A stretch of DNA of 64,000 bases from the NCBI GenBank assembly GCA_041629655.1, contig JBFKMV010000001.1, forward strand, positions 8,075 to 72,074. The letters run 5' to 3'. The position numbers were made by a program, and so were the translations under genes. This document shows, piece after piece, positions 1 through 46,341 of this stretch. The notes beneath the pieces were generated by a model that was not told the DNA's origin, did no database searches, and saw only the letters and a list, made by a program, of their open reading frames with translations. The DNA comes from Candidatus Polarisedimenticolaceae bacterium. GTDB lineage: Bacteria; Acidobacteriota; Polarisedimenticolia; Polarisedimenticolales; Polarisedimenticolaceae. The stretch's first letter is position 1, and each line of letters starts with the position of its first letter.

Positions 1-1214
1 ACGGCTACTACATCCTGGCCGACCTGCTCGAGATTCCGAACCTGGGGCAGCGGGGCCTGCAGTACCTGGGCTACCTGGTCAAGCGACGCGTGTTCCGGAT
101 CAAGGACGCCACGCCGCCCTACGTCGGTCCGGGAGAGCGGGCGTGGTTCGTGCTGTACTCGGTGTCCGCGTTCGTGTACCGGATGTTCATCTACGTCGGG
201 ATCATCCTGTTCGTGGCCGGCAAGTTCTTCGTGATCGGCGTGCTGCTGGCGATCTGGGCCGGGTCGAGCATGGTCGCGGTGCCGGTGTCCAAGGGGCTCA
301 AGTTCGTGATGTCGTCGCGCGAGCTGCGCGAGCGGCGGCCGCGGGCGATCCTGTTCTCGGGTGGCGCGATCCTCGCGGTGCTGTTGCTGATCTTCGGGCT
401 GCCGGTGCCGCACCGGACGCTGGCCGAGGGGGTGGTCTGGGTCCCGGAGGATGCCGTGGTGCGCGCCGCGGCGAGCGGCTTCGTCGTGCGCGTGGCGGCC
501 GAGCCGAACTCCCACGTGGAAGCCGGCCAGCTGCTGTTCGAGTGCGAGGACCCGTTGCTGCGCGCGCAGGCCGTGGCGTTGCGTGCGCGGCTGCGGGAGC
601 TGGAGAGCCGCTACGACCAGGCGCGGGCGACGGACCGCAGCGAGGCCCGGATCGTGGCCGAGGAGCGGGACAGCGTGGCCGAGGAGCTGCGACGCGCCGA
701 GGAGCGGCTGTCCGACCTCGCGATCCGGAGCCCGGCGACGGGCCGTTTCGTGCTCCCCAAGCCCGCCGACCTGCCGGGGCGCCACCTCAAGCAGGGCGAG
801 CTGCTGGCCTGGGTGCTGGACGTGGAGCGGCCGACGGTGCGCGTGGTGGTGCCGCAGTCCGGCGTGGACCTGGTGCGGCGCTCGACCCGCGGCGTCGAGG
901 TCCGGCTGGCGGAGCGGCTGGAGCGGGTGTTGCCGGCCGCGATCCGCCGCGAAGTGCCGGAGGCGGCCGAGCGGCTCCCCAGCACCACGCTCGGGAGCGC
1001 GGGCGGAGGCGAGATCGCGATCGACCCCTACGACGAGGGGCGGACCCGCACGTTCGAGAAGCTGTTCCAGTTCGATCTCGAGGTGACCCAGCCGCTCGAC
1101 CGCGTGTTCATCGGCGGCCGCGCCCACGTGCGCTTCGACCACGGCCTGGAGCCGCTCGGGCTGCGCTGGTACCGCGACGTGCGGCGGCTGCTGCTGCGGA
1201 GGTTCAATGTCTGA
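1..1214 (+). CDS. 3' part of a membrane protein with an HlyD-like periplasmic adaptor domain. Probably the M50-peptidase/HlyD fusion family. The 5' end lies outside the window.
   Basis: Frame 3 is open from base 3 (GYYILADLLEIPNLGQRG...) to the stop at 1214. Two hydrophobic helices are followed by a coiled-coil (RARLRELESRYDQARA) and a beta-rich tail, as in HlyD adaptors. The stop overlaps the next ATG (ATGTCTGA). Confidence 0.6.
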   Translation, partial: GYYILADLLEIPNLGQRGLQYLGYLVKRRVFRIKDATPPYVGPGERAWFVLYSVSAFVYRMFIYVGIILFVAGKFFVIGVLLAIWAGSSMVAVPVSKGLKFVMSSRELRERRPRAILFSGGAILAVLLLIFGLPVPHRTLAEGVVWVPEDAVVRAAASGFVVRVAAEPNSHVEAGQLLFECEDPLLRAQAVALRARLRELESRYDQARATDRSEARIVAEERDSVAEELRRAEERLSDLAIRSPATGRFVLPKPADLPGRHLKQGELLAWVLDVERPTVRVVVPQSGVDLVRRSTRGVEVRLAERLERVLPAAIRREVPEAAERLPSTTLGSAGGGEIAIDPYDEGRTRTFEKLFQFDLEVTQPLDRVFIGGRAHVRFDHGLEPLGLRWYRDVRRLLLRRFNV

Positions 1215-3198
1215 GGTCGGGGCCGGCCTGACCCGCGCGCGCGGCGCCTACCCGGAGCGCGGTGTGGACGAGGAGCGTGGCCTGGACCGGCTGGTGCGCG
1301 ACCTGCTGGGACAGCTCAAGCGGTTGCGGGGCGGGCGCGTCGCGCGGCACCGGCGGATCGTCGAGCTGGTCGAGGCCCACGGTTCGCGGTTCGCCGGCCT
1401 GAGCGACGAGGAGCTGGGCTGGCAGGCGCGCAGCCTGCGGCCCGAGCTGCGCGCGGGGGGGCTGACGCCGGCCCGCGTCGCCGAGTCGTTCGCGCTGGTG
1501 CGCGAGGTGGCCGGGCGACGGCTCGAGATGCGGCACTTCGACGTGCAGCTGATCGGCGGCTGGGTGCTGCTCAACGGGATGGTCGCCGAGATGGCGACCG
1601 GCGAGGGCAAGACGCTCACCGCGACCCTGCCCGCCTGCACGCTCGCGCTGGCCGGCGTGCCGGTGCACGTGATCACCGTCAACGACTACCTGGCCCGCCG
1701 CGACGCGGCGTGGATGGCGCCGGTCTACGAGGCGCTCGGTCTGAGCGTGGGCGTGGTGGCCCAGGGCATGGACCTGGAGCAGCGCCGCCAGGCCTACCGT
1801 TGCGACGTGACCTACTGCACGAACAAGGAGCTGGTGTTCGACTACCTGCGCGACCGGCTGGATCTGGGACGCCGGCCGGGACCGATCCGTTCGCGCCTGG
1901 AGCGGCTGGGCGGCAAGGCCGGCCGGGTCGAGCGGCTGCGACTGCGCGGCCTGTACTTCGCGATCGTCGACGAGGCGGACAGCGTACTGATCGACGAGGC
2001 GCGGACGCCGCTGATCATCTCCGGACCGGGCGACAACAGCTTCGAGGCCGAGGTCTACCGCCAGGCGCTCGAGCTGAGCGAGGGGCTCGAGTCGGGCCGC
2101 GACTACTACGTCGATTTCGCCAATCGCACCGTGGAGCTGCGCGAGGCCGCGGGCGAGCGGCTGGAGACGCTGGCCGAGCCGCTGCACGGGTTCTGGACCG
2201 GCAAGCGGCGCCGCGAGGAGCTGGTGCGGCTGGCGTTGACGGCGCGCCACCTGTTCCACCGCGACAAACACTACGTGGTCCGCGACGGCAAGGTGCAGAT
2301 CGTCGACGAGTACACCGGCCGCATCATGCCCGACCGCTCATGGGAGTACGGCCTGCACCAGCTGATCGAGACCAAGGAGCAATGCGACGTCACGACCCAG
2401 ACCGAGGTGCTGGGACGGATCAGCTACCAGAAGTTCTTCCGGCGCTACCTGGCGCTGTCGGGCATGACCGGCACCGCCCGCGAGGCCGCCGGCGAGCTGT
2501 GGTCGGTCTACCGGCTGGAGGTGGCGGCCGTGCCGACCAACAAGCCGATGCGTCGCCGCGATCACGGGCTCTCGGTCCACGCCACGCTCGACGACAAGTG
2601 GGCCGCCGTGGGGCGGCGGATCGAGAAGCTGACCACGGCCGGCCGCCCGGTGCTGGTCGGAACGCGCACCGTGGCGGCCTCGGAGCACCTGGCCGAGCTG
2701 CTCGCGGCGGCCGGTCTCGAGAGCCGCGTGCTGAACGCGCTCCAGGACCGGCACGAGGCCGAAATCGTCGCCGCCGCCGGACGGCGCGGCCAGATCACCG
2801 TCGCCACCAACATGGCCGGGCGGGGGACCGACATCAAGCTCGAATCCGGGATCGCCGAGCTGGGCGGACTGCACGTGATCGCCACCGAGCTGCACGACGC
2901 CGGCCGGATCGATCGCCAGCTGTTCGGCCGTTGCGGGCGGCAGGGCGACCCGGGCTCGTTCGAGGCGTTCGCGTCGCTGCAGGACGAGCTGCTGCGCGCG
3001 TATCCACGGCGGGTGCTGGGATTGCTTCCGCGACGCTGGGTCGGGACCGGGAGCCCGGCGGGTCGGCTGCTGGCGCGACTGCTGTTCCGTCGCGCGCAGC
3101 GCGCGGCCGAGCGCAGCCACTTCGCGATGCGCCGCGACCTGCTCAAGCTCGACGACTCGCTGGAGCGCGCGCTGGCCTTCGCCGGACGCGGGGAGTAG
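1207..3198 (+). CDS. Truncated SecA-like DEAD-motor ATPase (SecA paralogue lacking most of the C-terminal scaffold/wing/zinc-finger region)
   Basis: SecA signatures are present: [20 protein letters not shown] (Walker A), [46 protein letters not shown] and GRCGRQGDPG. The protein is 663 aa against 932 aa for the canonical SecA at 41984. It ends shortly after the first scaffold helix. Confidence 0.8.
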   Translation: MSEVGAGLTRARGAYPERGVDEERGLDRLVRDLLGQLKRLRGGRVARHRRIVELVEAHGSRFAGLSDEELGWQARSLRPELRAGGLTPARVAESFALVREVAGRRLEMRHFDVQLIGGWVLLNGMVAEMATGEGKTLTATLPACTLALAGVPVHVITVNDYLARRDAAWMAPVYEALGLSVGVVAQGMDLEQRRQAYRCDVTYCTNKELVFDYLRDRLDLGRRPGPIRSRLERLGGKAGRVERLRLRGLYFAIVDEADSVLIDEARTPLIISGPGDNSFEAEVYRQALELSEGLESGRDYYVDFANRTVELREAAGERLETLAEPLHGFWTGKRRREELVRLALTARHLFHRDKHYVVRDGKVQIVDEYTGRIMPDRSWEYGLHQLIETKEQCDVTTQTEVLGRISYQKFFRRYLALSGMTGTAREAAGELWSVYRLEVAAVPTNKPMRRRDHGLSVHATLDDKWAAVGRRIEKLTTAGRPVLVGTRTVAASEHLAELLAAAGLESRVLNALQDRHEAEIVAAAGRRGQITVATNMAGRGTDIKLESGIAELGGLHVIATELHDAGRIDRQLFGRCGRQGDPGSFEAFASLQDELLRAYPRRVLGLLPRRWVGTGSPAGRLLARLLFRRAQRAAERSHFAMRRDLLKLDDSLERALAFAGRGE

Positions 3199-3220: not shown

Positions 3221-4096
3221 TCAGTAGTGCAGGTTCATGTTGGCCATCACGCGCTCCGGCGTGGACGGCCCCTGGTTGCCCGCGATCTCGAACGGCGCGC
3301 AGATCCCGGCGTAGCACAGGGTCGCGGTGGTGTGGTCGGTGCCGTGTTCCGCGAGCCAGTTGGCGTAGGAGCGCCCGACCGTCCCGAGCAGCGGGTTGGT
3401 CAGGTCCACCGTGGCCCGCGGGTCGGGTCCCCCGCCGTACCACACCCGGGCGTCGCCGCGGAAGGGCAGCGACGTCACGGTGCCGGCATTGTTGTCGAGC
3501 GCGATGCTGAAGTTCGTCGCGTCCAGGTCGTAGATCAGCCCGATCCGGCCCAGCCGCCGCGTGAGCTTACCCTGGCCGAGCAGCGCCAGGCGGTCCTCCA
3601 GCGCCAGCCGCGTGCGGCCGCACTCGCCGTAGTAGCGTCCGGTGGCAACGAGGATCGAGAGCGAGCGGAACCCGAGGCAGTTCTCGTTCGGGGTCCCGTC
3701 GAACGGCTGGTCGCCGGGATCGTTGGGATTCGGCGCGGTCCAGATCGCGCAGCCCTGCCAGTCGGGGTTGCAGTACAGATCGGAGTGGAACGTGGGCTGA
3801 CCCGCCAATCCCGAGTGGTTGTTGTAGGTCAGCAGGGTCTGGTCCCCGTTGGCCTTCTGATCGACGAACGAGAACAGCTCGTCGGTCCCGTCCTCGTAGA
3901 GGAACGCCGTCTGCGACGACTCGCGGATGTGCGCGCGCCCGTTGGTGTTCACCGGCAGGGGAGCGTTCCCTCCGCCCCCGAGCGAGCTTCCCGTGTCGTG
4001 GTCCTGGTCGTTGTCGGTGATCACCGGGTAGTCGGTGATGCACCCGAGACCCAGCGCGACGGCCACGCAAAAACAGAGATGGGCCAGCGTTCTCAT
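3221..4096 (-). CDS. Hypothetical lipoprotein
   Basis: Start chosen at MRTLAHLCFCVAVALGLGC (lipobox LGC) inside the 311-aa ORF. I recognise no family. Several Cys pairs suggest a secreted disulfide-bonded protein. Confidence 0.5.
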   Translation of the reverse strand: MRTLAHLCFCVAVALGLGCITDYPVITDNDQDHDTGSSLGGGGNAPLPVNTNGRAHIRESSQTAFLYEDGTDELFSFVDQKANGDQTLLTYNNHSGLAGQPTFHSDLYCNPDWQGCAIWTAPNPNDPGDQPFDGTPNENCLGFRSLSILVATGRYYGECGRTRLALEDRLALLGQGKLTRRLGRIGLIYDLDATNFSIALDNNAGTVTSLPFRGDARVWYGGGPDPRATVDLTNPLLGTVGRSYANWLAEHGTDHTTATLCYAGICAPFEIAGNQGPSTPERVMANMNLHY

Positions 4097-4244
4097 GAGC
4101 CCCCCTTTCGCTGCTGGATTGTCCCAAGAATACGCCCCCGGGTCGCCAGGGGTCAAGCGCGAACGGGCCGCTGCCGGCCTGCTCGGCGTCCGCTCGACGG
4201 ACGCACGGTGGGCAGGCCGGGCGGCCCTTGGGGGGTGGAGGGGG

Positions 4245-41919: not shown

Positions 41920-46341
<4,422 letters not shown>

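Follow-up and report, generated by a model that had tools for sequence, protein, structure and literature searches.

We analysed a 64,000-nucleotide stretch of the genome of a Candidatus Polarisedimenticolaceae bacterium (Acidobacteriota), called the window in the following, which corresponds to positions 8075-72074 of contig C1 in an assembly of 320 contigs (genome G000 in our numbering; the 8 kb upstream are locus L001). The window opens with the 3' part of a gene in which a PqqD-type (RRE) domain, an M50-type metalloprotease and an HlyD-type periplasmic adaptor are fused, followed by the gene of a short SecA paralogue. The two genes overlap by eight nucleotides, as displayed by the sequence ttcaATGTCTGAggt, in which the ATG of the short SecA precedes the stop codon of the fusion. 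This overlap with an HlyD-like gene had been noticed in a first-pass annotation of the window, made from the letters alone, and it is confirmed here.

The short SecA possesses the complete SecA motor. Pfam matches were obtained for SecA_DEAD (7e-106), SecA_PP_bind (4e-27) and P-loop_SecA, the second nucleotide-binding domain (NBD2; 1.5e-49), and the motor motifs are present as Walker A MATGEGKT with the lysine at K135, Walker B and GRCGRQGDPG. SecA_SW and SEC-C were looked for with Pfam, and neither matched. The housekeeping SecA of the same window contains both, SecA_SW from residue 645 onwards and the SEC-C zinc motif. Both proteins share 41% identity, residues 50-650 of the short SecA corresponding to residues 27-678 of the canonical protein, and the correspondence ends at approximately residue 691 of 932. 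Given the start of SecA_SW at residue 645, the short SecA therefore retains only the long scaffold helix of that region. An insertion of approximately 45 residues in NBD2 of the canonical SecA is missing as well. The first-pass annotation had reported the intact motor, the lack of wing, IRA1/two-helix finger and zinc tail, and a full-length SecA at 41984, all of which agree with the domain search and the alignment. Its N-terminal extension of about 90 residues does not: we measured approximately 23-30 residues beyond canonical SecA.

All SecA and SecA2 models of NCBIfam match the short SecA, each below its own cut-off. The scores are 630 bits against a cut-off of 814 (PRK12904) and 620 against 800 (TIGR00963) for housekeeping SecA, and 482 against 725 (TIGR04221), 486 against 930 (TIGR03714), 560 against 1085 (TIGR04397) and 415 against 1100 (NF012136) for SecA2, so that the equivalog cut-off is passed for none of the four SecA2 models. 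With a housekeeping SecA it shares PPXD and the motor (NBD1 and NBD2 with Walker A, Walker B and arginine finger), and it lacks wing, finger, zinc/SecB-binding tail and the equivalog score. The best structure-linked sequence matches are SecA and SecA2 structures. At least 8,000 homologues were scored, the best 120 of which are 57-97% identical and mostly exactly 663 residues long; the 97% match belongs to a near-identical cluster, and the remainder are 57-71% identical. Judged by identities of 58-70% across phyla versus 41% to the canonical SecA of the window genome, the short SecAs are a distinct orthologous group. In 27 family sequences 131 columns are invariant, every motor motif among them. 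The family further conserves an N-terminal motif of its own, G(F/A)YPER..E..LDR, which lies within the N-terminal extension, and a C-terminal tail LAFSGRGE. By length and motif content the gene is real and intact, and no pseudogene. A scan of the operon for promoters and terminators yielded nothing above shuffled sequences (G+C 71%). Acidobacteriota also have a second SecA of another kind: in G101, a genome of the same taxonomic family that does not contain the system, two SecA-like frames of 942 and 836 residues lie at C1:1210034-1211569 and 2565059-2566678.

The fusion gene begins at C1:7141 (L001:7141). Its PqqD domain is recognized by Pfam (PF05402, residues 37-100) with 29.2 bits against a threshold of 23.4 (1e-6), and HlyD_D23 is found by Pfam as well. 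Residues 18-410 span the whole NCBIfam profile of the daptide_HExxH intramembrane metalloprotease (2e-49), with 169 bits against an equivalog cut-off of 300; the model of the YydH/LiaK epipeptide protease matches more weakly. The M50 active site, which the first-pass annotation had suggested to look for, is present as HELGH at residues 210-214 together with FNGNPLLRFDGY at residues 303-314. Among 38 fusion sequences H210, E211, H214, N304, N306 and D312 are invariant, and P307 is kept in at least 90%. The protein possesses the HExxH, the NxxPxxxxDG-type motif and the membrane helices of a site-2 protease of the M50 family. An AlphaFold 2 model (pLDDT 83) begins with a sheet (strands within residues 24-50) and helices (52-97), which is in agreement with the Pfam score for a PqqD/RRE fold. 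Approximately eight membrane helices with a β-hairpin, a last membrane helix and the periplasmic adaptor follow, the latter with an α-hairpin of two 26-residue helices. Foldseek with the whole model returned adaptor matches only, the C-terminal half resembling MexA, AcrA and MacA (E 1e-11). From the profile matches the N-terminal half of the fusion is homologous to leader peptidases with a PqqD/RRE domain from the biosynthesis of ribosomally synthesized and post-translationally modified peptides (RiPPs), and binding of a leader is predicted. The homologues of the fusion are mostly 715 residues long, which parallels the fixed length of the short SecA.

To describe the occurrence of the gene row one genome per species was scanned for the fusion, and 80 independent species loci, fetched by their M50-HlyD gene with 10 kb of flank, were kept. 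The fusion occurs in at least 597 species of Acidobacteriota, Omnitrophota, Nitrospira, Rokubacteria, Methylomirabilia, Myxococcota, Desulfobacterota and alpha-, beta- and gamma-proteobacteria, cultured strains among them. The order that recurs across phyla is DUF3467, GAF-HlyD, M50-HlyD, short SecA, small HlyD and sometimes a TolC-type outer membrane efflux protein (OEP). The short SecA lies 3' of the fusion in 76 out of 80 loci (two of the four exceptions are truncated by contig ends), and GAF-HlyD lies 5' of it in 74, the remaining six being cut at the 5' end. Less constant are the small HlyD (63 loci), DUF3467 (32) and a SapC-family protein (13). The first-pass annotation had asked for an ABC (ATP-binding cassette) ATPase as a possible partner; 81 out of 84 loci have none within 10 kb.

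The overlap of the two genes is conserved in a similar manner. ATG or GTG stands at exactly the same overlap position in 55 out of 79 loci from many phyla, an overlap of one or four nucleotides occurs in a further eight, and the fusion has a conserved RRFNV at its C-terminus. Translational coupling is therefore a trait of the family. The pairing of SecA and adaptor recurs in 76 of the 80 species genomes and is more than chance; the reservation of the first-pass annotation that it might not be conserved is thereby removed. Its proposal that the SecA motor belongs to an adaptor/peptidase machine rather than to SecYEG gains support from the conserved pairing, the overlap and the lack of an ABC partner. 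Three loci (L045, L066, L074) may represent a divergent subtype: their small HlyD is inverted, and M50-HlyD is followed by a SecA-like gene with only 33-38% identity to the short SecA.

Table 1. Features of the locus in the window, in the upstream 8 kb of contig C1 (L001) and on contig C127 of the same assembly.
Feature	Position	Strand	Description
PqqD(RRE)-M50 protease-HlyD adaptor fusion, C-terminal 403 of 715 aa	1..1214	+	gene start 934 bases upstream of the window
8-nt overlap ATGTCTGA	1207..1214	+	short SecA start codon inside final codons and stop of the M50-HlyD gene
Short SecA paralogue	1207..3198	+	663-aa open frame, ATG start; NBD1, PPXD, NBD2, long scaffold helix
ORF of 311 aa, convergent with short SecA	3221-4156	-	stop codons 22 bases apart
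Canonical housekeeping SecA, comparator outside the system	41984..44782	+	932 aa; SecA_DEAD, PPXD, P-loop_SecA, SecA_SW, SEC-C
Giant RTX-repeat protein, C-terminal 1,516 aa	8 kb upstream of the window (L001), 5'-most	+	truncated by contig start
DUF3467 protein, 112 aa	probable ATG at L001:4851	+	
GAF-HlyD, 631 aa	L001, between DUF3467 and fusion	+	cytoplasmic GAF, one membrane helix, HlyD domain
OEP and small periplasmic HlyD adaptor	C127:11384-13427	+	orthologues of L002 genes
LEPR-XLL giant, N-terminal 3,083 aa	C127:1-9249	-	divergent from OEP/small HlyD; open to contig end

The first-pass annotation expected the remainder of the locus upstream of the window, and it lies there: contig C1 carries on one strand the end of a giant gene, DUF3467, GAF-HlyD (with a single hydrophobic segment at residues 363-387), the fusion and the short SecA. 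The TolC-type partner that was also to be looked for was found on contig C127. In the closest relatives OEP and small HlyD follow SecA; in this assembly they are not adjacent to it, and are 59% (OEP) and 68% (small adaptor) identical to the SecA-adjacent genes of L002. Divergent from them on C127 is a giant frame which begins with MPRKYGRFF...VLFEALEPRLLLSGD and contains the LEPR-8K match of this genome (C127:9058-9120; 37.1 bits against a cut-off of 17). This fragment is colinear with residues 2-2800 of an 8,409-residue orthologue from a Polarisedimenticolia genome, to which the fragment on C1 aligns colinearly at residues 6983-8363 (47% identity). The simplest reading is that both are parts of one giant gene of approximately 8,000 codons, which was broken in its repeats by the assembler; we infer the join from this colinearity. 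With a single giant gene across the gap the complete system would therefore be contiguous in the organism. On the other side of the short SecA, the convergent 311-residue ORF is unrelated to the system; its product carries a lipoprotein-like signal (…ALGLGC), and neither Pfam nor NCBIfam gave a match.

Giant genes adjoin the gene row elsewhere as well. When all other ORFs of the 84 loci were clustered, the largest family (26 loci) was a giant plus-strand ORF that ends directly upstream of DUF3467, SapC or GAF-HlyD. By position, such an ORF lies upstream in 33 of the 67 loci with enough flank, and most of these ORFs exceed the 10-kb flank. Eight loci were extended by 20 kb to read them: five give full ORFs of 7,974-8,696 residues, two frames are still open beyond 9,190 residues, and in the last (L056) 5,377 residues were read and the LEPR motif was not seen. 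The five full ORFs have in common LE(A/P)LEPRxLLSAD behind a basic stretch of 20-100 residues. LEPR-8K (NCBIfam NF012209, a 24-residue N-terminal "LEPR-XLL domain") is above its cut-off in all three giants scanned (27-35 bits). A hydrophobic Sec-type core was not found in the leader of the giant, and the C-terminal 120 residues of the giants are poorly conserved.

To obtain an independent count we used an even sample of 201 Acidobacteriota genomes, defining a fusion orthologue by E < 1e-200. Five genomes contain one, in each case with the short SecA adjacent. LEPR-8K is above cut-off in four of these five carriers compared to none of the 196 others (Fisher p = 8e-8); the fifth carrier is an assembly of 500 contigs. 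Adjacency, co-occurrence genome by genome and domain logic together make the link of the system to giant LEPR-XLL cargo well supported. A second LEPR-XLL ORF, of 14,970 residues, was observed at G160:C66:65565-65627, in the genome of L005 and at a distance of approximately 40 kb from the system; several giants may share one machine.

A motif related in appearance, RRLxxExLExRxLLA, has been proposed as an export signal in planctomycetes (R. baltica), according to the passage in PMC8567305 that cites Studholme 2004. The corresponding Pfam model Planc_extracel (PF07595) matches the leader of L068 below threshold (14.7 against 25.5 bits) and does not match the leader of the window genome. The LEPR leaders are therefore linked to the planctomycete motif by resemblance. 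In Chl. chlorochromatii two LEPRxLL giants reach the partner cell without known transport signals, a recently acquired secA of unspecified type is co-expressed with both, and sapC adjoins them (bioRxiv 10.64898/2026.03.19.712371).

Not every relative of the adaptor pair is associated with a SecA. A distant fusion (25-30% identical) occurs in 22 of the 201 Acidobacteriota genomes. In the seven regions fetched (L093-L099) GAF-HlyD is paired with it in all seven, and a SecA was found within 20 kb in none. L094, the only one of them with Pfam annotation, contains no other ATPase gene of the system, and no LEPR match was found in the genomes with the distant fusion. The adaptor pair is therefore the older core, and by their occurrence the short SecA, the small adaptor and DUF3467 accompany the LEPR giants.

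The gene row as such has been described before. Kamneva, Poudel and Ward (2015; PMC4452313) reported "secondary SecA_DEAD domain protein" loci, for example META1p2402-2399 of M. extorquens AM1, that consist of a SecA_DEAD protein without wing and scaffold, GAF-HlyD, Peptidase_M50, HlyD/Biotin_lipoyl and sometimes OEP. They proposed that the SecA domain is the ATPase replacing an ABC transporter and that the part in the membrane is formed by the M50 protein, and left the biological role "completely unknown"; DUF3467, PqqD, cargo, giants and Acidobacteria are not mentioned (PMC4452313). Here we find a wing-less SecA_DEAD protein with GAF-HlyD and M50, and small adaptor and OEP on C127. The window locus is an acidobacterial member of this gene row known since 2015. 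Our literature search found no publication that links the row to LEPR-XLL proteins. A Chemical Reviews article on type I secretion (2021) was considered as prior art for M50/SecA and discarded, its mentions being irrelevant.

We consider it fairly probable that the short SecA serves as cytoplasmic ATPase in a conserved envelope machine that is TolC-linked, has no ABC transporter and is dedicated to giant LEPR-XLL proteins. The neighbor of approximately 8,000 residues is probably exported by this system, and we infer that its leader would be cleaved. A mechanism can be sketched from what RRE domains, site-2 proteases, the SecA clamp and tripartite adaptors are known to do. The PqqD-type domain of M50-HlyD could bind the N-terminal leader of the giant, a basic stretch that ends in LEPRLLLSGD. 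The short SecA, which keeps the polypeptide clamp (PPXD and NBD2) and has lost the SecY-inserting two-helix finger, might dock from the cytoplasmic side on M50-HlyD and GAF-HlyD via its own N- and C-terminal motifs and feed the unfolded chain from N to C into the inner-membrane complex. The site-2-type metalloprotease would remove the leader, the chain may exit via the duct of adaptors and OEP, helped by the pull of calcium-driven RTX folding outside, and the GAF domain could gate the machine on a small ligand. As a speculation, the combination of a processive motor and an N-terminal signal would allow export to begin before a message of 8,000 codons is fully translated, which a C-terminal type I signal would not permit.

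In its widest form the proposal is that of a new diderm secretion class, in which a SecY-independent, wing-less SecA and the fusion of RRE, site-2 protease and adaptor replace the ABC transporter, read the N-terminal LEPRxLLSAD leader and thread proteins of 8,000-15,000 residues from N to C through a three-adaptor/TolC duct, possibly co-translationally. We hold this tentatively, at slightly less than an even chance.

Several points weigh against a dedicated exporter driven by the short SecA. The two-helix finger, which the short SecA does not have, is used in both current models of SecA translocation. No protein-conducting channel was identified for the system, and M50 membrane domains are not known to act as protein conduits. 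The match to Peptidase_M50 is below the gathering threshold in Pfam (PF02163; 18.0 against 27.2 bits); a distant relative of the fusion (L094) scores 29 bits. RTX repeats, as present in the giants, pair in classical type I secretion with a C-terminal signal and export of the C-terminus first. A giant gene adjoins only about half of the loci, and the GAF-HlyD/M50-HlyD pair may act without the short SecA motor, because relatives of the pair exist without any SecA. DUF3467 was considered as a SecB-like chaperone and rejected, no SecB being among the 50 listed Foldseek matches in the PDB; its AlphaFold 2 model (pLDDT 81) is a β-β-β-α fold for which Foldseek against the PDB gave no match with E < 0.1. 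Finally, in M. extorquens AM1 in exponential phase only the GAF gene is clearly expressed (PMC4452313).

In an alternative explanation the set handles the leader only. The giant would then be exported C-terminus first by an ABC type I system encoded elsewhere, and SecA, M50 and GAF proteins would hold, unfold or cleave the LEPR leader to anchor or release it, like the control of LapA by LapG/LapD. The GAF sensor domain suggests regulated release, GAF-HlyD/M50-HlyD pairs occur without SecA, and the window genome encodes several ABC exporters with partial similarity to HlyB. None of these exporters is an HlyB equivalog above cut-off, however (best score 392 against 725 bits), and the loci themselves generally have no ABC gene nearby while the set contributes three adaptors and, in many cases, an OEP; it would be unusual for a complete duct to lack an energizer of its own. 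We regard this alternative as unlikely, albeit as the strongest competitor. Considerably less probable is a RiPP-like system that matures and exports a small ribosomal peptide and has a giant neighbor for other reasons. The PqqD/RRE domain, the similarity to daptide and YydH/LiaK leader peptidases, a radical SAM gene in five out of 84 loci and small ORFs upstream in one locus speak for it. Clustering of all flanking ORFs, however, gave no conserved family of small precursors, and DUF3467, the sole conserved small protein, differs from a RiPP precursor by its folded and highly conserved core. Moreover, the system and LEPR-XLL proteins tend to be found in the same genomes, and a short peptide needs no processive SecA motor.

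If the short SecA was an accessory ATPase of the SecA2 type, it would work with SecYEG for a subset of proteins, and its neighbors would be mechanistically unrelated. Its best matches among structures are in agreement with this, as is the tree of 2015, in which the clade stands beside actinobacterial SecA2 (PMC4452313). Yet it scores below every SecA2 equivalog cut-off, the finger and wing that contact SecY are missing, its terminal motifs are those of its own family, and the overlap with the M50-HlyD gene is kept across phyla, so that we rate this explanation as very improbable, marginally behind the RiPP-like one. A functionless, decaying secA duplicate, which the first-pass annotation had named as a possible objection and for which the shorter C-terminus could be an argument, is rejected because length (mostly exactly 663 residues among the best 120 of at least 8,000 homologues), motor motifs (within the 131 invariant columns of 27 sequences) and synteny are all conserved.

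The exporter proposed here resembles type I secretion (HlyB-HlyD-TolC, or LapBCE with LapA) in its HlyD adaptors and TolC-type OEP, its RTX-rich cargo and the adjacent gene of a huge substrate. A membrane fusion protein and a TolC-type factor are present; the ABC energizer is not. Instead, a SecA paralogue would supply the energy, there are three adaptors, two of which are fused to cytoplasmic or membrane modules, and the conserved motif of the cargo is N-terminal and not C-terminal. The proposed mechanism would be similar to that of peptidase-containing ABC transporters for bacteriocins (PCATs) in the recognition and cleavage of an N-terminal leader by a built-in protease; in diderms PCATs also use an HlyD adaptor. 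They differ in the peptidase (C39 cysteine peptidase instead of M50 with PqqD/RRE), the motor (ABC instead of SecA-like) and the cargo (a peptide instead of approximately 8,000 residues). The RRE-bearing intramembrane metalloproteases of RiPP pathways (daptide_HExxH, NF041824; YydH/LiaK, NF058609) share HExxH and a PqqD-like domain over approximately 400 aligned N-terminal residues; the present protein does not reach the equivalog cut-off and continues into a periplasmic adaptor, and no RiPP precursor was found in the flanking ORFs.

The SecA2 proteins of Actinobacteria and Firmicutes likewise are a second SecA per genome with the motor core kept. They function together with SecYEG or SecY2 and have retained scaffold, wing and finger, whereas the short SecA stops behind the long scaffold helix and is coupled to the M50-HlyD gene. 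A SecA without its C-terminal helical domains can be a stable protein, as E. coli SecA-N68 shows (PMC5603524). Giant proteins of Omnitrophota and Actinobacteriota embed SecA_DEAD and PPXD without scaffold and wing, for which a role in self-export was proposed (bioRxiv 10.1101/2023.11.21.568195); there the motor is inside the giant, and here it is a separate protein of 663 residues in an adaptor/protease operon.

The system bears on the question how bacteria export proteins of at least 8,000 residues without a Sec signal peptide or a cognate ABC exporter. If the proposed role is true, a SecA motor would work without SecYEG and without the two-helix finger, which bears on the debate about how SecA moves polypeptides. 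The ties to giant cargo yield a hypothesis that can be tested in cultured carriers, among them M. extorquens AM1, Neptuniibacter caesariensis MED92, Labrenzia alba and Pseudomonas sp. MMS21.

Beyond the recurring genes some loci contain variable components. The SapC-family protein (Pfam 7e-74) has no fixed place, and separates either the giant from GAF-HlyD or M50-HlyD from SecA; loci with it include L053, L057, L058, L077, L078, L083 and L084. Radical SAM genes were observed for example at L037:6763-7707 and L069:16741-17748 (5 out of 84 loci), and a protein of approximately 280 residues without assigned family in seven loci, once fused to a DUF3467 domain (L037:3403-4521). The latter two are hints of modification chemistry in a subset of the systems.

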